Origin: Candidatus Parcubacteria bacterium
Lineage (GTDB): Bacteria > Patescibacteriota > Minisyncoccia > Phycocordibacterales > UBA918
Assembly (NCBI GenBank): GCA_046050355.1
Contig: JBJOPW010000002.1
Coordinates: 43,853 to 107,852 of the forward strand
Reading direction: 5' to 3'
DNA: 64,000 nucleotides
The notes beneath the pieces were generated by a model that did not search any database, had not been told where the DNA came from, and was given only the letters and a program-made list of their open reading frames with translations. The position numbers and the translations under genes were made by a program. Shown here piece by piece: positions 4,768 through 11,100 of this stretch (within the stretch, counting starts at the first letter, position 1; each line of letters opens with the position of its first letter).

Positions 4768-5222
4768 TAGACCAAGCAAAATTACAAACAATCATCACCC
4801 GCCTCGTACGGTCATCCTCGGTTGTTGAGCGACCAGCGATGAGTCCGGCTCGTGAATGGTTCACCGGTATCCTCATTACAATTTGTTTTGTATGTGTTGG
4901 TGGAGTAGTGAGTTATTGGTTATATCTTAATACCGTATCGGTAGAAGCGGAGGTGCAGGATAGTATAACCGCTACTTCATACAAAGGCGCCTTAGTCGAA
5001 GAGGCGGTTATGCGTTTTCGTGCCCGGGGCGCTGCTTACGAGCAGATTCGCGCCCGACAAAACGATCTGCAGCCAGTTGAGGCAATGGCGCCGGTGCCAC
5101 CAGTAACGACTGAGTCACCAATTACTGAGGTTCCTGCGGACCTTACGCCAGAACCACAGATACCAACGGTGGAGCCTGCAGAAGAAGCGACAGAGGAGTC
5201 TGCACCAACGTTGAGTTTTTAG
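4764..5222 (+). CDS. Membrane-anchored protein with a Pro/Glu/Thr-rich C-terminus (possible pilus-associated PilP-like component).
   Basis: Coupled to pilO by a 4-nt overlap. One TM. Low-complexity acidic C-terminal tail. Confidence 0.35.
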   Translation: MIDQAKLQTIITRLVRSSSVVERPAMSPAREWFTGILITICFVCVGGVVSYWLYLNTVSVEAEVQDSITATSYKGALVEEAVMRFRARGAAYEQIRARQNDLQPVEAMAPVPPVTTESPITEVPADLTPEPQIPTVEPAEEATEESAPTLSF

Positions 5223-5276
5223 TCGAAGTCACCGCACTAAACCACATCACTGTTGTGATGTGGTTTAGTGAATTTA

Positions 5277-5420
5277 CTCTGCCCCGGCTTGGAATCGTCC
5301 TGACGGTCACCAAGCTAGATTGTTTCGCTTTTGCTCACAATCTAGCAGGTGCCGCGGGACACGGCTCGCTGGCCCTAAAGGGGACCCCAGCTCCGCCGTT
5401 CGATTCCAAGCCGTGCCTAC
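5277..5420 (-). repeat. Structured tRNA-Arg 3'-end-derived segment: inverted and direct copies of the tRNA 3' end closing a multi-hairpin region that includes a conserved-loop hairpin.
   Basis: 5277-5297 is a 21/21 direct repeat of 5631-5651 (tRNA-Arg 3' end plus 4-nt trailer). 5399-5410 is its inverted complement (12-bp closing stem). Internal hairpin CTAGATTGT[GAGCAAAAGCGAA]ACAATCTAG. Confidence 0.5.
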
Positions 5421-5436
5421 AAATGTTAAATAATTT

Positions 5437-5545
5437 GGTCACGAATCACTAAGTATATTGATTCACTCCGTTCTCAATCTACTAAATGTTCGCGACCCCG
5501 TCTCGCGGTTTTCTGCTTTGGTCAAGCAGAAAACATCGCTGCGAC
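5437..5545 (-). repeat. Copy B of the ~108-nt tRNA-associated repeat element.
   Basis: Reverse complement aligns to copy A, including the GTTTTCTGCTT..AAGCAGAAAAC hairpin and the core ending GATTCGTGACCA. Core hairpin AGTAGATTGA[GAACGGAGTGAA]TCAATATACT. Confidence 0.65.
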
Positions 5546-5587
5546 TCAGAGAGAAGTCGAAAGCAATATTAATTGCTTTCTAAACCA

Positions 5588-5626
5588 AACAAAAGCGCTC
5601 GTTTTGAGCGCTTTTGTTTGGTTTTC
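5588..5626. terminator. Strong hairpin (14-bp stem) immediately downstream of tRNA-Arg(TCT).
   Basis: AAACAAAAGCGCTC-GTTTT-GAGCGCTTTTGTTT with flanking T/A runs. Confidence 0.55.
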
Positions 5627-5633
5627 TTCTCTC

Positions 5634-5705
5634 TGCCCCGGCTTGGAATCGAACCAAGAATAACGGCTTAGAAGTCCGCAGTTATATCCATTTAACTACC
5701 GGGAC
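5634..5705 (-). tRNA. tRNA-Arg (anticodon TCT).
   Basis: Reverse complement folds as a cloverleaf. Acceptor GTCCCGG/CCGGGGC, D-stem GTTA/TAAC with GG in the loop, anticodon loop CTTCTAA, T-arm CTTGG-TTCGATT-CCAAG. No CCA encoded. Confidence 0.8.
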
Positions 5706-5799
5706 GCACCCCATCTAACGATGAGGTGAAGACAGCATAGCAAAAAAATGGTGAGCCGGAAACTTCGTGAATCGCGCAGTGTTTTGTATACTACAAATT

Positions 5800-6537
5800 A
5801 TGCAAGACCGACCGACTATCCTTTTGGTGCAATTCAGACAAACTCCTGCCGCTGATCTCCTCGAACGCCAGAGTGTTGAACGTGAAGTTTCTCTCTTTGC
5901 GACGGTAAAAACTATATGTGGGGTTACCGGCAATGTACTCGAAGCGATACAGGGTGCTGATGGTGTGATACTCGGCGGTTCGGGAGACTATGATTTTGAT
6001 GGAGCGAGATCGCCCGATGATCCAGTACGGGCACGTACCGAAAATCTGTTTCGGTCACTTAGTCCAACGCTCGATTACTTATTTACTATCGATAAGCCAC
6101 TTCTTGGGATTTGTTTTGGACACCAGCTCATGGGTGCCTTTCGGGGTGCCAATGTCTATCACGACACTAACCAGAGCAAATTAAAGACGCATACCGTGAC
6201 GCTCCACGATGAAGGACGGAACCACCGCCTGTTTGCAAATATGCCAGTAACTTTTGATGCACAGTATGGACACAAGGATGTGCTCGCACATATTCCGACG
6301 GGTGCGACTTTGCTTGCGCATGGTGGTGAATCCTGTCGGGTGTCAGCGCTCGCGTATAGTGACAATATTATCTCGACACAATTCCATCCCGAATTATCGC
6401 TCGCTGATATGTATGACCGGGTGGCACATATTCCGCACTATTTACCAGAAGGTACAACCGTTGATGACGTGTTTTTTGATACGCCACACGCGCGGACGAT
6501 TTTGCATAATTTTGCGAAGGTGGTGGTAGCGGGGTAG
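5800..6537 (+). CDS. Class I glutamine amidotransferase-like protein.
   Basis: GICFGHQLM (catalytic Cys elbow) and TQFHPE motifs of the GATase1 family. Start trimmed to the ATG at 5800. Confidence 0.7.
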   Translation: MQDRPTILLVQFRQTPAADLLERQSVEREVSLFATVKTICGVTGNVLEAIQGADGVILGGSGDYDFDGARSPDDPVRARTENLFRSLSPTLDYLFTIDKPLLGICFGHQLMGAFRGANVYHDTNQSKLKTHTVTLHDEGRNHRLFANMPVTFDAQYGHKDVLAHIPTGATLLAHGGESCRVSALAYSDNIISTQFHPELSLADMYDRVAHIPHYLPEGTTVDDVFFDTPHARTILHNFAKVVVAG

Positions 6538-6754
6538 GGGCGGGGACTCGGTCACTCTCGTGGCTATATTAGTTCACAAGTTCATAATCTATGGACTCTT
6601 CAGGACTCGACCCAGAATCACGGTTCTTTTATTCAATACATTGAATAAAAGAAGCTCGTGTTCTTGGTCGGCGACTCCTCGTAATTTCTCTTGGTCAGAG
6701 AAATTACATCGTCCGTCGCTTCGAGTCCCTCACGGAAGCAAAACTATTTGCTTC

Positions 6755-7006
6755 CTATCGCCCACAAACAAAAAGAACCACTCCTGCGGTTCTTTTTGTT
6801 TGTGGCCATGACCGCGACAGAGATCGAACTATCACTGAGTTCCTCAAGAAGTTCGACAAGACGTCCGCCGATGCGTAAAGGCCTTGAAACTTCTGTAATG
6901 TGGCCATGATCGTGACACGGATCGAACTATCAGCGAGTTTCTGAATAAATTCGACAAGCCATCTGTCAGGGAATAAAGACCCTAAGACTTCTGTAAGGCG
7001 GCCCAC
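6755..7006 (-). pseudogene. Fused, frame-shifted tandem copies of a small-gene 3' end (shares the C-terminal peptide ...LQKxQGLYxSAxxLSNFxRNSVIVRSLSRS with 7976-8185).
   Basis: The ORF reads through two tandem ~100-bp DNA repeat units. The stop codon present in the 7976 copy (TGA) is TGG here, and unit 2 is frame-shifted. Confidence 0.3.
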
Positions 7007-7022
7007 ATCGACACATTTCTCG
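6764..7022 (+). repeat. 16-bp-stem hairpin (6764-6803) followed by two tandem ~100-bp repeat units (6803-6900, 6901-~7022). A third unit lies at 7973-8098.
   Basis: Units begin TGG(C/T)CATGA(C/T)CG(C/T)GACA..GATCGAAC and contain GTAAAG.CC.T.A.ACTTCTGTAA. Units 1 and 2 are directly adjacent with no spacer. Confidence 0.6.
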
Positions 7023-7678
7023 AACTTGGGCTCCCAACGACCTTCTAAGGTCGATCATTGAAAGGCTGGCGTCGCGTAAGTTGCCCCAGCAGGCTCGCGA
7101 CAATCATTGCGAGGCCTCCTTGCACTCATTCGATGCCGGCAACAATGGGTCGAAGAGCCTTGACATGCGGCAACGGACTGTTCCACCCTTAGACAGCACT
7201 CAATGAGAGGTTGAATCGACTCGCGCCGAAGTCCTGTTTCGGGTTCACAAAATGCTTCCAACTGTTACTGGTTCCATGCTCGGGATCGGAAGATATCTTA
7301 GTCACAGCGACAACCTAAGTACTTGATTTTATTGAGTTTTCCGCCTTTTTCCTTGCATTTGCCGCTGAGGTATGGGAAGATACTTGGGCGATAGGCTCGA
7401 GGCTGACCCGTCGCGGTGAAAGGTGCTGCAACACCAATCACATGTCCCACAAGGACGGCGCCCCAACCACAACCTGGTTGGGGCTTTCCTTTTATGTTGA
7501 CACGATGTCGTGGTCACATCCACCATGTTCCCATCAGGTTCGAGAATCGGGATGCAGCCCGCGAGCCTGACAGGGTCAGCCTCGGCCCTGCACTTTGTGG
7601 CGCGAATGCCGCTTATCGGCCCGGTGGCTGAGTTTGTACGCGCATTGGAGTGCAGGGCTTCTAGATTGGAGCCTACCC

Positions 7679-7864
7679 ATGTCGAAACATGGTATCATCG
7701 CCGATGTGCTCTTCGGAGCGATTGAAACCACCCTTGCGCCAGTCGTTGCTGTCGTCGAGGGAGTAACCGGTGAGGTCAGCAAGGAAGCCAGCGATGGTGT
7801 GCTTCGGGCAATTGTTGATCCGACCGATATCGCGATCAACGGCCTGATCAATATCACGAGGTAA
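7679..7864 (+). CDS. Small hypothetical protein (61 aa).
   Basis: ATG with GGAG 9 nt upstream. ORF is followed immediately by an 8-bp GC hairpin (CTCCGGCG..CGCCGGAG). Lies in the GC-elevated segment. Weak support. Confidence 0.25.
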   Translation: MSKHGIIADVLFGAIETTLAPVVAVVEGVTGEVSKEASDGVLRAIVDPTDIAINGLINITR

Positions 7865-7930
7865 CATCTCACTAACTCCGGCGGGATCTAGGTCTCGCCG
7901 GAGCCTAATAAATGTGTTTCTGATAGAAGA

Positions 7931-8098
7931 CAAGGGGAGTTGCGCAGTCCGCAACTCCCCTTGTCTTTACAGTGGTCATGACCGCGACAAGGATCGAACG
8001 ATCACGGAGTTCCTGAAGAAATTCGACAAGCCTCCCGCCGAAGAGTAAAGACCCTGAGACTTCTGTAAGGTGACCCAGAACGACACACTTCTCGAACC
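7931..8098 (+). repeat. Perfect 14-bp-stem hairpin (7931-7965) followed by repeat unit 3.
   Basis: CAAGGGGAGTTGCG-cagtcc-GCAACTCCCCTTG, then TGGTCATGACCGCGACAAGGATCGAAC... homologous to units at 6803-7022. Confidence 0.6.
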
Positions 8099-8185
8099 AT
8101 AAAAACGGTGCTCGAAAAATTGCAACATGTCGGTGGAAGAGACGCTAGACTTCGAAAACTCGAAAACTGAGTCTCTTGGTGGCAA
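7976..8185 (-). CDS. Small hypothetical protein (69 aa) ending in the repeated C-terminal peptide, followed by a terminator hairpin.
   Basis: Intact ORF whose last ~30 codons lie in repeat unit 3. TGA stop, then the 14-bp hairpin on the minus strand. Confidence 0.3.
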   Translation of the reverse strand: MPPRDSVFEFSKSSVSSTDMLQFFEHRFYGSRSVSFWVTLQKSQGLYSSAGGLSNFFRNSVIVRSLSRS

Positions 8186-8436
8186 TAGCAGAGACAGGGG
8201 TCAAAGCATCACGGAATTCTCGAGTAATCCACAATTCTTCTGGCTAAGAGTAAACTCTCTGAGATATCGGTACTGCGACCTTGACCGAGAAGGGTAGAAA
8301 GGAGAAAGCTATGACGTGAACTTACAGTGATCTAGACGCACAGCCCGACACGTTGGAGTTCAAATTGAAGTCAAGGTTCGGCAAGCATGCTCACAGTGAC
8401 AGTCTGTTCATTAGGGACGGAACCTGATGAACGCCA

Positions 8437-8859
8437 GTGGTGACACGCGATGTGCAAAGTGACATAGAGAGCTTCAAGTCAATTGATGACAGGGGTCAGT
8501 GGATGCTGCAACCAACATACTACGAGCACGAGTCGGGCTTGAACTGTGTTGACATAGCCAAGCGGTTGGCATTCCTTCGGGGAAACATTGTAAAGTACGT
8601 TTGGCGAGCAGGCAATAAGGGTGATTTGGTTCAAGACCTGCAGAAGGCGATTGAGTACGCGCAGATACTCATTGTTGACCCAGATCGGGTTTGCCAGGAC
8701 CAAGAGTTGGTTTCGATGATTGATTGGTATTGTAAGAATGAGTCGCACGACCTTCGTAGGACCATTATTAGAAGTGCCGCGCTGGACTCATCAGAGATCG
8801 ACTTGAAAGAAGGTGTTTTGATGAAGCTAGACCAGTGGGTTGATTCAACTCGGTCATGA
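8437..8859 (+). CDS. DUF3310-family protein (phage-associated).
   Basis: TYYEHESGLNCVDIAKRLAFLRGNIVKYVWRAGNKGDLVQDLQKAIEYAQIL matches the DUF3310 signature (..HY..G.E.ID.......FLLGNAIKYIWRAG.KG....DL.KA.WYL). GTG start. 3' end overlaps the convergent gene 8768-9454 by 92 nt, so its extent is uncertain. Confidence 0.5.
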   Translation: MVTRDVQSDIESFKSIDDRGQWMLQPTYYEHESGLNCVDIAKRLAFLRGNIVKYVWRAGNKGDLVQDLQKAIEYAQILIVDPDRVCQDQELVSMIDWYCKNESHDLRRTIIRSAALDSSEIDLKEGVLMKLDQWVDSTRS

Positions 8860-9454
8860 GTACTCGCTGCAGCAGCGTTAGTCGCGTATAATTCTTAGCA
8901 TCTTTGATGCAGGCAGGGTTGCGGATATTCAACATTAGGCAAGATCTGGTGAAGAACCATGACTTCAGATAGACTTCTCTCCCCCCAATAAACGGACAGC
9001 GAACAAGATCTACGGTACTTCTGCTAACGAGAAGGGAACGGTTGACCGAAGCTATCAGAGTGTCCATGACGGCATGATCAACAGTATTCCTGAACATCCG
9101 CGGATCGCCCCTTAGTACCTCCGAAAACAAACCTTCAGGTCCTATCTGATCGCGGAGGTCAGACTCTTCACGAAGAAGTTCATATATTTCTTTGACTAGT
9201 GCCCAATGCTTCTTGTCGCAGAGGTTGATCACGGACTCTGCTTCAATTCGTGCTTCAAGGACGACGGGAGTCAATTCAGTTCCGGCGCACTTGTTTTCCG
9301 TCCACGACAACGCATGGCGTGGGCCAGCTTCGAAGAAGTATATGCCTTCACCTAGCCAAAGGCCATCATGTTTACTCGGGTTGAATCTGTTCGATCGAGA
9401 GATTGACTCAGCAGACCCAAGGTCTGTTCCATGATACGCGATGTAGGTATACAA
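8768..9454 (-). CDS. ART-fold protein (RES-domain / PARP-like), putative NAD-utilizing toxin.
   Basis: N-terminal YHGT...NRFNPS...GEGIYFFEAGPRHALSWTE resembles the RES motif (GRFNPpG...lYlaes.etAllE) and the PARP H-G-[ST]/G.GIYF pattern. The C-terminal ~60 aa overlap the DUF3310 ORF and may be read-through. Confidence 0.45.
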   Translation of the reverse strand: MYTYIAYHGTDLGSAESISRSNRFNPSKHDGLWLGEGIYFFEAGPRHALSWTENKCAGTELTPVVLEARIEAESVINLCDKKHWALVKEIYELLREESDLRDQIGPEGLFSEVLRGDPRMFRNTVDHAVMDTLIASVNRSLLVSRSTVDLVRCPFIGGREVYLKSWFFTRSCLMLNIRNPACIKDAKNYTRLTLLQRVLMTELNQPTGLASSKHLLSSRSLMSPARHF

Positions 9455-9485
9455 AAAAATAGGCCCCCAGAGATTGTGGGGGACC

Positions 9486-10169
9486 TTAGCTTCCTACAAC
9501 GGTCTTTGCAAGACTCTCTCCCTGAACTGCATTGATGTTGTTGGGATCAGTGCAGTTGATGCGGTGAAATTCGTTCGCTGCAAAGACAATCACCGAGACA
9601 TTGGCTGAATCCGCCTCTGCCTTGACGATGCTGTAGGCCCTACGCAACTCATCGCGCGAAATCGCGTCAATGGTTAGGCCCATTCGCTTTGTCCTGTTTG
9701 ATAGAGGGGTTGCGTTGTCCCGTAGCTGATTTAAGCTAACCGGAAGAGCATCTGAGCTTGGTTTCCAAGTGCGAGATCCAAGAAGGACTTCGACACCATT
9801 ATCCCTTTGCTCTATATCTCCGCCTGTAATTATAAACTCTAAAGCAACAATTGCAATTAATATACCAACTTGAGGCAATAGAAGGAGAATTGTCAAGTAG
9901 AGCTCAGTTTCTGTCGTCTTTAGGAAGATTAGTGAGGCAGCGCTCGTTAGCAGAAGAATAAGATGGACTATTCCAAGTACAATAGATATCCCTACTCTGC
10001 GCGGAAGTATCTCCCCATGCTCATTTACTTGGGTTATCGGTTCAAAAAGGGTCCGAGCATTCAAAACTACTCGCCTCAATGTGCTTACAAACTGCCGCAA
10101 TGATGACGAACGCTTAACTAGCGCATAGAGGCCTGGTCCGACGGCGAAACTCAAAAGTGATGCTGACAT
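9486..10169 (-). CDS. Two-TM membrane protein of unknown function, directly upstream of and co-oriented with the ART-fold gene.
   Basis: Two adjacent hydrophobic helices (aa ~60-113) and a ~110-aa C-terminal soluble domain. 31-nt gap to the downstream gene. Confidence 0.45.
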   Translation of the reverse strand: MSASLLSFAVGPGLYALVKRSSSLRQFVSTLRRVVLNARTLFEPITQVNEHGEILPRRVGISIVLGIVHLILLLTSAASLIFLKTTETELYLTILLLLPQVGILIAIVALEFIITGGDIEQRDNGVEVLLGSRTWKPSSDALPVSLNQLRDNATPLSNRTKRMGLTIDAISRDELRRAYSIVKAEADSANVSVIVFAANEFHRINCTDPNNINAVQGESLAKTVVGS

Positions 10170-10273
10170 TTGGTCGAAAACTGCTTCTCGAACCGGACCA
10201 TAATCGGAAAATATCCAGTGTTAGAGCCCTATAATTGGCTTCAGATGAGGGAAAATTGTGGGGGTGTCCCCAA

Positions 10274-10349
10274 TGGTGGGCGATGAGGGACTCGAACCCC
10301 CGACCTCGATGGTGTAAACATCTTGCTCTACCAACTGAGCTAATCGCCC
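10274..10349 (-). tRNA. tRNA-Val (anticodon TAC), CCA encoded.
   Basis: Reverse complement GGGCGAT-TA-GCTC..GAGC-A-AGATG-TTTACAC-CATCG-AGGTC-GGGGG-TTCGAGT-CCCTC-ATCGCCC-A-CCA. A hairpin TGGGGGTGTCCCCA lies immediately 3'. Confidence 0.85.
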
Positions 10350-10434
10350 GAATGTCATGCAGTATAGCGTACTTTATTAAATTGTCCACCGGTAAGTTAT
10401 TAGAATAACACGTATATGGTATAATAATGAGCGT

Positions 10435-11100
10435 ATGAAAATACTCGAAAAGAAGAGGGCTATAGAGTTGCGTGAGCGGGGGATAGCTTTAGGTGAAATC
10501 GCTAAAAAATTAAACGTAGCAAAAGCTACAGTCAGTTATTGGGTACGGGATATTTCATTATCGAAGACACAGATCAAGCAACTCAGAGCGAATAGTCACT
10601 CAAGAGAAGCAATTGAAAAGCGACGATTGTCACGTATGACTGCAGCCGAAAAAATCCGAGATAGTATACGAGAAGAAGCTCGACAACAAGCAGTACAGTT
10701 AATCAAAAATCCATTATGGTGTGTTGCAATAGCCTTATATTGGGGGGAGGGTGGAAAGACGCAACGAACGGTTCGAATCGCAAATAGCGACCCCTCAGTT
10801 ATTAGACTACTTTGCCACTTCTTTAGAAATGAATGTCATGTGCCACTTTCTAAAATGCGAGCACATGTTCATGCGTTTTCGCACAGCGATATTGAATCAA
10901 TAGAGAAGTACTGGTCAAAAATTAGTGGCATACCCAGAAATCAATTTTTTAAGGCATATATTAAACAAAGTAGCTCTAGTAAAGAAAAAAGACAAACACT
11001 TCCAAATGGTACAATGCAAATATATGTACATGATAGTAGTTTGTTTATTAAAATTATAGCTTGGATAGAATATCTGAAAGAGATAAAACATTATGATTGA
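10435..11100 (+). CDS. HTH-domain protein with a possible LAGLIDADG-like motif (candidate free-standing homing endonuclease).
   Basis: N-terminal resolvase/sigma-70 region-4-like HTH (RGIALGEIAKKLNVAKATVSYWVRD). Central AIALYWGEGGK resembles LAGLI(E/D)GDG. AT-rich. Sits between tRNA-Val and acyP. Confidence 0.4.
   Translation: MKILEKKRAIELRERGIALGEIAKKLNVAKATVSYWVRDISLSKTQIKQLRANSHSREAIEKRRLSRMTAAEKIRDSIREEARQQAVQLIKNPLWCVAIALYWGEGGKTQRTVRIANSDPSVIRLLCHFFRNECHVPLSKMRAHVHAFSHSDIESIEKYWSKISGIPRNQFFKAYIKQSSSSKEKRQTLPNGTMQIYVHDSSLFIKIIAWIEYLKEIKHYD

Follow-up and report, generated by a model that had tools for sequence, protein, structure and literature searches.

A CmdT-related ADP-ribosyltransferase gene and an upstream membrane-protein gene form a candidate toxin–antitoxin or abortive-infection cassette in a Parcubacteria genome

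Introduction

PD-T4-9, or CmdTAC, contains CmdT, an ADP-ribosyltransferase (ART) that ADP-ribosylates mRNA and blocks translation (PMC9519451, PMC11618068, bioRxiv 10.1101/2024.02.24.581848). The catalytic triad of CmdT is H-Y-[E,D,Q] (PMC11618068), with Y41 as the catalytic tyrosine (PMC11618068; bioRxiv 10.1101/2024.02.24.581848). Expressed alone in E. coli, CmdT is non-toxic, and it needs CmdA to fold (PMC11445053, PMC11618068). CmdT established mRNA ADP-ribosylation as an antiviral mechanism, and the restraint and triggering of such an enzyme are known only for a design that combines an antitoxin with a chaperone. Here we describe a locus of Candidatus Parcubacteria bacterium in which a gene for a distant CmdT relative (gene 2) follows a gene for a membrane protein (gene 1). 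It lies in a stretch of 64,000 nt (GCA_046050355.1, contig JBJOPW010000002.1, positions 43,853 to 107,852; hereafter the window, with coordinates counted from its first letter).

We read this locus as a two-gene toxin–antitoxin (TA) or abortive-infection-like cassette on a small integrative element, composed of a CmdT-related ART, a membrane partner and an RNA attenuator, and put the probability of this reading at roughly 0.5. An initial annotation, made from the letters of the window, had proposed a toxin or abortive-infection pair of a membrane protein and a RES- or PARP-like protein. Such a role for the pair still appears the most plausible one; the closest characterised relative is CmdT, which that annotation had not considered.

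Results

A tandem gene pair with a structured spacer

The two genes are co-oriented in tandem on the minus strand and separated by a spacer of 31 nt. Both open reading frames (ORFs) were recovered where the initial annotation had placed them, and the module comprises the following features:

9486..10169, minus strand: gene 1, membrane protein, ATG start, 227 aa (ORF scan)
8768..9454, minus strand: gene 2, ART-fold protein and distant CmdT relative, TTG start, 228 aa
9461..9486, minus strand: intergenic GC-rich hairpin (terminator scan, stem 9482-9464; folding)
9452..9460, minus strand: U-run UAUUUUUUU 3′ of the hairpin, whose last two U together with a G are the TTG start of the ART gene (9452-9454)

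Sequence comparison shows that neither gene 1 nor gene 2 is a chance reading frame.

Gene 2 as a CmdT-related ADP-ribosyltransferase

The gene 2 protein consists of a conserved domain (residues 1-190) and a lineage-specific tail (~191-228). An AlphaFold2 (AF2) model based on a 26-sequence alignment was confident (predicted local distance difference test score (pLDDT) 89.4; predicted template-modelling score (pTM) 0.83), with disorder confined to residues 214-228, and displays the split beta-sheet of the ART fold. Foldseek searches of the model against PDB and BFVD agreed with this assignment and also returned phage 'ART-PolyVal-like' domains; the inactive PARP-like domains of PARP13, RCD1 and TASOR were among the structural neighbours. 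All 19 sub-threshold matches of a profile search against PDB sequences were exotoxin A, PARP10, PARP4 or cholix toxin (E 0.05-0.7). In the HMMER alignments shown for exotoxin A and PARP10, H8 and Y39 align with the His (YHGT) and Tyr (G-x-Y) motifs of these enzymes.

Conservation over 172 relatives was highest at G35, G37 and Y39 (99%), followed by H8, G9 and F40 (97% each), T10 (T or C in 97%), D126, R152 and F155 (95-97%), W33 and L34 (94%), position 42 (E or Q in 90%) and S165 (87%). The motifs YHGT, NRFNPS and GEGIYFFEAGPRHALSWTE, on which the initial annotation had based its RES- or PARP-like reading, are all found in the protein. The PARP-like half of that reading was right and the RES half wrong, since the ART motifs H-G-T and G-x-G-x-Y-F are conserved (97-99%) and the residues of the supposed RES core are not: R23 is Arg in 12% of relatives, N25 is variable and E53 is Glu in 19%. 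Profile searches point the same way. The window ART has no match to the Pfam RES family (PF08808) at E <= 1, and among 26 family members scanned at E <= 10 PARP was matched by 11, Exotox-A by 2 and Tpt1 by 1, with none matching RES or DarT, which the initial annotation had also named for comparison. We rejected RES membership on both counts, and a RES-type NAD+-degrading toxin of the MbcT, ParT or NatT kind with an atypical antitoxin is accordingly a very improbable explanation of the locus.

Pfam and NCBIfam hold no match for the gene 2 protein; PHROGs returned phrog_14664 for residues 1-187 (E = 2e-11). In PADLOC, both models of PD-T4-9_A gave weak matches, confined to residues 3-98 (E = 7.4e-5 and 4.9e-4), and 22 of the 26 relatives found by word-index search matched PD-T4-9_A as well, with a best E of 5.5e-9. 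These matches are consistent with remote homology rather than orthology. With fold, motifs and profiles combined, we are highly confident that gene 2 encodes an H-Y-clade ART related to CmdT.

An exhaustive profile search returned 2,422 clusters (50% identity) at E <= 1e-3 and just 12 at E <= 1e-30, so the family is large and the window's own clade rare. Scans of metagenomic and viral collections for further loci of this close clade yielded almost nothing new, and the genome collection contributed only relatives of at most 31% identity. The protein has full-length homologues, and 44 positions do not vary among six close relatives. No Pfam model covers the CmdT-like family, whose members are called 'hypothetical protein' in all annotated records inspected. 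One relative (L102 199-1278, P0011; 359 aa, 33% identity; loci are cited by our L numbers) has its ART domain fused to a C-terminal lipocalin-like domain (Lipocalin_5, E = 5.5e-16), on a contig too short to reveal an upstream partner.

A variant active site in the window clade

In the model, strands 150-155 and 172-177 are joined by a loop. Over this part, most of the family reads R-x-x-F-x-E157-G ... S-H172-[VI]-Q174-[IV]-A-V, with E157 in 67%, H172 in 71% and Q174 in 62% of sequences, and with the combination E-H-Q at 157/172/174 in 74 of 172. The x-x-Q-hydrophobic-hydrophobic pattern resembles the catalytic strands of diphtheria toxin, exotoxin A and PARP, which leads us to infer that the third residue of the triad lies at 174; the assignment draws on the alignment and on the arrangement of strands in the model rather than on superposed coordinates. 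The window ART and its 12 closest relatives carry [G/R/S/A]-C-M at 157/172/174 (G, C and M in the window). Residues 172-177 of the window protein are C-L-M-L-N-I, with no acidic or amide residue at 174, and strand 5 does not begin with a catalytic Glu.

The clade-wide joint replacement of E157 by G, R, S or A, of H172 by C and of Q174 by M would suit a catalytically dead pseudo-enzyme that is retained in a membrane complex for binding or as a scaffold, as would the inactive PARP-like domains among its structural neighbours. Against this stand the preserved NAD-binding His, Gly-x-Gly-x-Tyr-Phe strand, D126, R152 and S165. Furthermore, position 174 varies throughout the family (Q, M, A or I, depending on the sub-clade), as does the third triad position in active mono-ART PARPs, and PARPs of the H-Y-hydrophobic type are active mono-ARTs. 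The tight control of expression described below argues in addition for a hazardous product. We therefore regard a dead enzyme as decidedly unlikely. Since variability at position 174 is typical of H-Y-x mono-ARTs, activity is possible, although its chemistry may differ; the C172/M174 variant might act on a new substrate or by a new chemistry.

Gene 1 encodes a fast-evolving membrane partner

From hydropathy and charge counts, the gene 1 protein begins with an 18-aa hydrophobic segment containing a conserved GPG, followed by a basic linker of 40 aa (8-9 K+R versus 2-3 D+E), a transmembrane (TM) hairpin at about residues 59-83 and 90-110 with the 6-aa loop KTTETE, and a C-terminal domain of 117 aa. 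Across the partner family, the hairpin loop is acidic and 4-6 residues long and the C-terminal domain measures 112-117 aa; conserved features are also present in and around the TM hairpin. The initial description of a 227-aa protein with two TM helices and a C-terminal domain thus holds, with the N-terminal hydrophobic segment to be added. By the positive-inside rule, both soluble parts would be cytoplasmic, on the same side of the membrane as the ART.

No match to the gene 1 protein was found in Pfam, NCBIfam, PHROGs or PADLOC, a profile search of PDB returned nothing, and a word-index search returned only the protein itself. There was likewise no match to HTH_3 or DUF2384, which bears out the earlier remark that the partner is an unusual membrane protein and not of the Xre/DUF2384 kind.

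In six further independent loci, a homologue of the partner is encoded directly ahead of the ART, as in the window (198-245 aa; 16-30% identity). The partner in L001-L004, a Pseudomonadota metagenome-assembled genome (MAG) and three other assemblies, has 245 aa and 29% identity to the window protein (BLASTP E = 1e-28 for L001); it has 235 aa in L005, 218 aa in L006/L007 and 232 aa in L098, and is divergent in L008. In L099, a 168-aa TM protein is followed by a 72-aa ORF for the C-terminal domain. We rejected a domain fission there, because an ambiguous base at the junction makes a frameshift or assembly error equally likely. When 5,308 ORFs from 100 sequences (the window plus 99 loci) were scanned with a partner profile, matches were confined to the close-clade loci, and all seven distinct loci of this clade carry the upstream membrane protein. 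The partner changes more rapidly than the ART (16-30% versus 40-46% identity), a pattern usual for antitoxin or immunity partners.

A conserved hairpin in front of the ART gene

The spacer hairpin starts at the stop codon of gene 1 and has a C-rich 5′ arm and a G-rich 3′ arm. Its stability in the window is -15 kcal/mol (z = -3.1; 0 of 200 shuffles equally stable). Equivalent hairpins with other stem sequences occupy the same spacer in L001, L098, L005, L099 and L006, and none was found in that of L008; six of the seven close-clade spacers thus hold a strong hairpin (z -2.3 to -4.1, with 0 to 10 of 200 shuffles as stable). A U-run leads into the TTG start in the window, L001, L098, L005 and L099, and in L006 the hairpin is followed by an ATG. 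The spacer is too short for a promoter, so gene 2 must be reached by read-through from gene 1, and the sole Shine-Dalgarno-like sequence is the G-rich arm, which lies inside the stem. Hairpin, U-run and weak TTG start would together hold ART output well below that of the partner, as expected if the ART is the hazardous product.

This arrangement bears on the possibility that the roles are reversed, with the membrane protein as the lethal effector (pore- or holin-like, or a 2-TM protein of the SLATT kind) and the ART as its regulator or sensor. Variants of this idea have the ART modify the membrane protein or a phage component, or produce an NAD-derived signal. Membrane-disrupting 2-TM effectors are common in abortive-infection systems, the partner has conserved features at and near the TM hairpin, and the loss of E157, H172 and Q174 in the clade could mean a changed, non-toxic activity. 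However, it is the ART and not the membrane protein that hairpin, U-run and TTG throttle, neither SLATT nor another effector family was detected in the partner even at E <= 10, and every characterised relative of the ART is a toxin. We thus consider a reversal of roles unlikely and retain the ART as the more probable effector.

Partner architectures in the wider family

In 58 loci of the wider family, a small gene (mostly 60-125 aa) lies downstream of the ART gene, at a distance of -34 to +20 nt. The encoded proteins have an N-terminal helix, an [MV][ST]xE[EQ]F motif and a second helix, and many terminate in ...LAA, ...KAA or ...VAA, matching the ClpXP-targeted Ala-Ala end of CmdA, whose unstructured C-terminal ChAD closes with this degron. 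Such ClpXP-type degron ends among the small partners in L017-L088 suggest that many of these loci are two-gene CmdTA-like systems without a chaperone. One Photorhabdus locus (L084) has the layout toxin, small gene and SecB-like gene, the last matching PD-T4-9_C at E = 3.9e-9.

On the conjugative plasmids pAt1D1108b and pPSR1, relatives with 29-31% identity are preceded by a gene for 57-59 aa that overlaps the ART gene by 4 nt, and one plasmid-borne small upstream protein ends in AAAA. Small upstream partners occur on conjugative plasmids of Agrobacterium, Rhizobium and Pseudomonas syringae, with examples at 2298-2477 of L100 and 2301-2474 of L101.

A CmdA-like small downstream gene was found in no close-clade locus, and its place in the window is taken by a convergent DUF3310 gene. 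Neither PD-T4-9_C nor SecB was matched by the four adjacent genes scanned in the window. At least three partner architectures are seen in the family, namely a small downstream gene with or without SecB, a small upstream gene on plasmids and an upstream membrane protein, the last standing in for the small antitoxin in one clade.

Mobile context and surroundings of the module

Two further features flank the gene pair:

8437..8859, plus strand: DUF3310 gene, 140 aa, convergent with the pair (Pfam DUF3310 E = 4e-9; phrog_236 E = 4.5e-19)
10274..10349, minus strand: tRNA-Val(TAC), 3′ end towards the module (ARAGORN and Rfam)

The DUF3310 gene, labelled 'nucleotide kinase' in PHROGs, is of phage type, as the initial annotation had noted of this neighbour. 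Its product shares 34% identity with the protein at the same position in L001, and a convergent DUF3310 gene accompanies the pair in three of the seven distinct loci (window, L001 and L098). In the window it overlaps the last 92 nt of gene 2. The C-terminal tail of the ART, about 38 residues long (8768-8881), is absent from the homologues of ~190 aa and runs antisense through the 3′ end of the DUF3310 gene; since neither L001 nor L098 shows this overlap, the tail looks like the result of a lost ancestral stop codon.

On its other side, the pair is adjoined just upstream by tRNA-Val(TAC). Two short contigs, each from a different sequencing run, match the window at 100% identity from 10305 to 6752 (L103) and from 10305 to 7633 (L104), and both begin at 10305, inside the T-arm of the tRNA. 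This shared start suggests a branch of the assembly graph at the tRNA 3′ end and strain-level variability beyond the tRNA. The 3′ end of tRNA-Val is likely the boundary of an insertion site; integrase remnants or an att repeat of tRNA-Val that would bound the island were not found in the window.

Relatives of the cassette occur in clearly mobile surroundings. L001/L002 carry it among integrases, a relaxase, TrwB and AlpA, in L098 and L008 it is followed by an integrase, and members of the wider family lie beside tra genes on conjugative plasmids. Its presence in both a bacterium of the Candidate Phyla Radiation (CPR) and a Pseudomonadota MAG indicates that the cassette moves across phyla. Distant ART relatives adjoin Lamassu LmuB and Abi_2 genes.

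These surroundings would also suit a module for addiction to, or stabilisation of, the integrative element, or what is left of such a module in decay; it would have no role in phage defence and may be non-functional cargo in this Parcubacteria genome. The cassette travels with integrases and DUF3310 genes in L001 and L098, no integrase is left nearby in the window, the ART has acquired a read-through tail of 38 aa that overlaps the neighbouring gene, and family members sit next to tra genes. Decay is countered by two intact ORFs, an intact hairpin and the retention of all clade-invariant residues; addiction, for its part, is compatible with defence and would have an identical molecular mechanism. 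We judge this explanation improbable, if somewhat less so than a reversal of roles, and keep to a cassette with a toxin or abortive-infection role.

Further observations concern the sequence around the module. Rfam returned two tRNAs and nothing else over positions 5000-11000. Beyond tRNA-Val, a gene at 10435-11100 (plus strand) encodes a 221-aa protein with an N-terminal helix-turn-helix (HTH; HTH_23, E = 1.3e-5), named 'transposase-like protein' by JGI; it lies in a stretch of low GC content (0.37-0.42) and may represent further foreign DNA. A perfect 19-bp inverted repeat with a 5-nt loop (5582-5624) adjoins tRNA-Arg(TCT) (5634-5705) and is probably a bidirectional terminator.

Between 6560 and 8436, about 1.9 kb contain no convincing ORF. 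This region holds three copies of a repeat of 130-150 nt (6802-6951, 6900-7049 and 7972-8121; 76-81% identity). A perfect 18-bp hairpin, of unrelated sequence in each case, stands ahead of the first copy (6762-6805) and of the third (7927-7967). One frame of the repeats shows a conserved peptide end, GHDRD.DRTI[TS]EFL[KN]KFDK, with differences of the synonymous type, and conservation runs on beyond the stop codon. The repeats have no Rfam match and no further copy in the window or the fetched loci, and the sequence between them is relatively GC-rich (0.52-0.58).

In public records, the 228-aa ART product is known from Logan assemblies only, and JGI calls the gene 1 protein in a version of 192 aa. 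NCBI protein accessions pass from MFM2339536 (DUF3310) to MFM2339538 (HTH protein), which leaves room for one protein, so that at least one of genes 1 and 2 seems to be uncalled in the deposited annotation. A missing call for the ART gene would not be surprising because of its TTG start within a U-run and its overlap with the DUF3310 gene.

Discussion

In the arrangement that we propose, the harmful effector would be the ~190-aa ART of the H-Y-x (PARP/diphtheria-toxin) clade encoded by gene 2, acting by NAD+-dependent ADP-ribosylation of RNA or another nucleic acid as its most likely chemistry. RNA as the actual target is a tentative suggestion, to which we give less than an even chance. The membrane-anchored gene 1 protein, with linker and C-terminal domain in the cytoplasm, would stand in for a CmdA-type antitoxin with or without a SecB-like chaperone. 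By binding the ART it might keep the enzyme inactive at the membrane, and its degradation or a disturbance of the membrane, for example during infection, could set the enzyme free. Hairpin, U-run and TTG start would meanwhile keep synthesis of the ART well below that of the partner. That the pair works as a toxin together with its neutraliser or sensor has, in our estimate, about even odds.

A more specific version of this scheme is doubtful, and slightly more so than an RNA target. In it, a protein with 2-3 TM segments would use its cytoplasmic domain to hold an RNA-targeting ART at the inner membrane. Release would follow either degradation of this membrane-tethered antitoxin or sensor (e.g. 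by FtsH rather than ClpXP) or perturbation of the membrane by phage entry or a holin, and would couple envelope integrity to translation shut-off.

Several observations weigh against our interpretation. On the side of the ART, the weak PD-T4-9_A match covers the N-terminal half of the protein only, and the [G/R/S/A]-C-M signature of the clade means that the enzyme may have a different chemistry or be a non-catalytic binder. On the side of the partner, a shared 'S-x-E-E-[FL]' look had prompted us to compare its C-terminal domain with CmdA-like antitoxins, and we detected no homology (hmmsearch E >= 0.2; hhalign probability 1.4%). Sub-threshold matches of this domain to NikA-like ribbon-helix-helix (RHH) proteins in three of six family members (E 1e-4 to 0.07; ParD at E = 0.054 in one) are a hint only, and the window's own partner has no such match. 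A single-sequence AF2 model of the partner was unusable (pLDDT 47). The need of CmdT for CmdA in folding means that a partner acting as a simple inhibitor may be too simple a picture, and the 2-TM partner could itself be the lethal effector.

The interest of the locus lies in its controller. In the window clade, the enzyme family of CmdT occurs with a fast-evolving membrane protein and a conserved RNA attenuator. Were the membrane partner to act as a sensor, events at the envelope would be coupled to an arrest of translation, and the pair would offer a tractable case of how ART toxins stay inactive.

Comparison with known systems

With RES-Xre modules (MbcTA, ParST, NatRT), the locus has in common an ART-superfamily fold, a two-gene order with the partner upstream of the toxin and a mobile or island context. 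It differs from them in the absence of a RES profile match, in the lack of conservation of the R/E/S signature, in a motif of the H...Y rather than the R...E...S type and in a partner that is not Xre/DUF2384. The class of PARP, diphtheria toxin and exotoxin A shares the H-Y motifs described above, but the window ART has no significant sequence-profile membership in it, bears a helical insert of ~60 residues (residues ~81-144) and lacks a Glu at the predicted third triad position. The likeness to DarTG would be that of an ART toxin modifying nucleic acid in a TA and anti-phage context. Gene order, the 31-nt spacer, the conserved hairpin with a weak start and the mobile context would suit a generic type II TA module with its neutraliser made in excess; the partner here is membrane-bound and far larger than typical antitoxins.

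CmdTAC is the closest of the systems compared. CmdT and the window protein are both single-domain ARTs of ~190 aa with H-G-[TC] and G-x-G-x-Y-F at the same positions (Y41 in CmdT, Y39 here), both are carried on mobile elements, and their superfamily includes L084 with its CmdA-like gene and SecB-like CmdC. The window clade departs from CmdTAC in several respects: it has neither a small downstream CmdA-like gene nor a SecB-like chaperone; its partner is encoded upstream, in reversed order, and is a membrane protein of ~230 aa with no detectable similarity to CmdA; the window enzyme has G, C and M for E157, H172 and Q174; in the window, the ART gene starts with TTG behind a terminator-like hairpin; and the host belongs to the Parcubacteria (CPR). 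A membrane partner in place of a small antitoxin and a chaperone would be a new way of holding a CmdT-like toxin in check.

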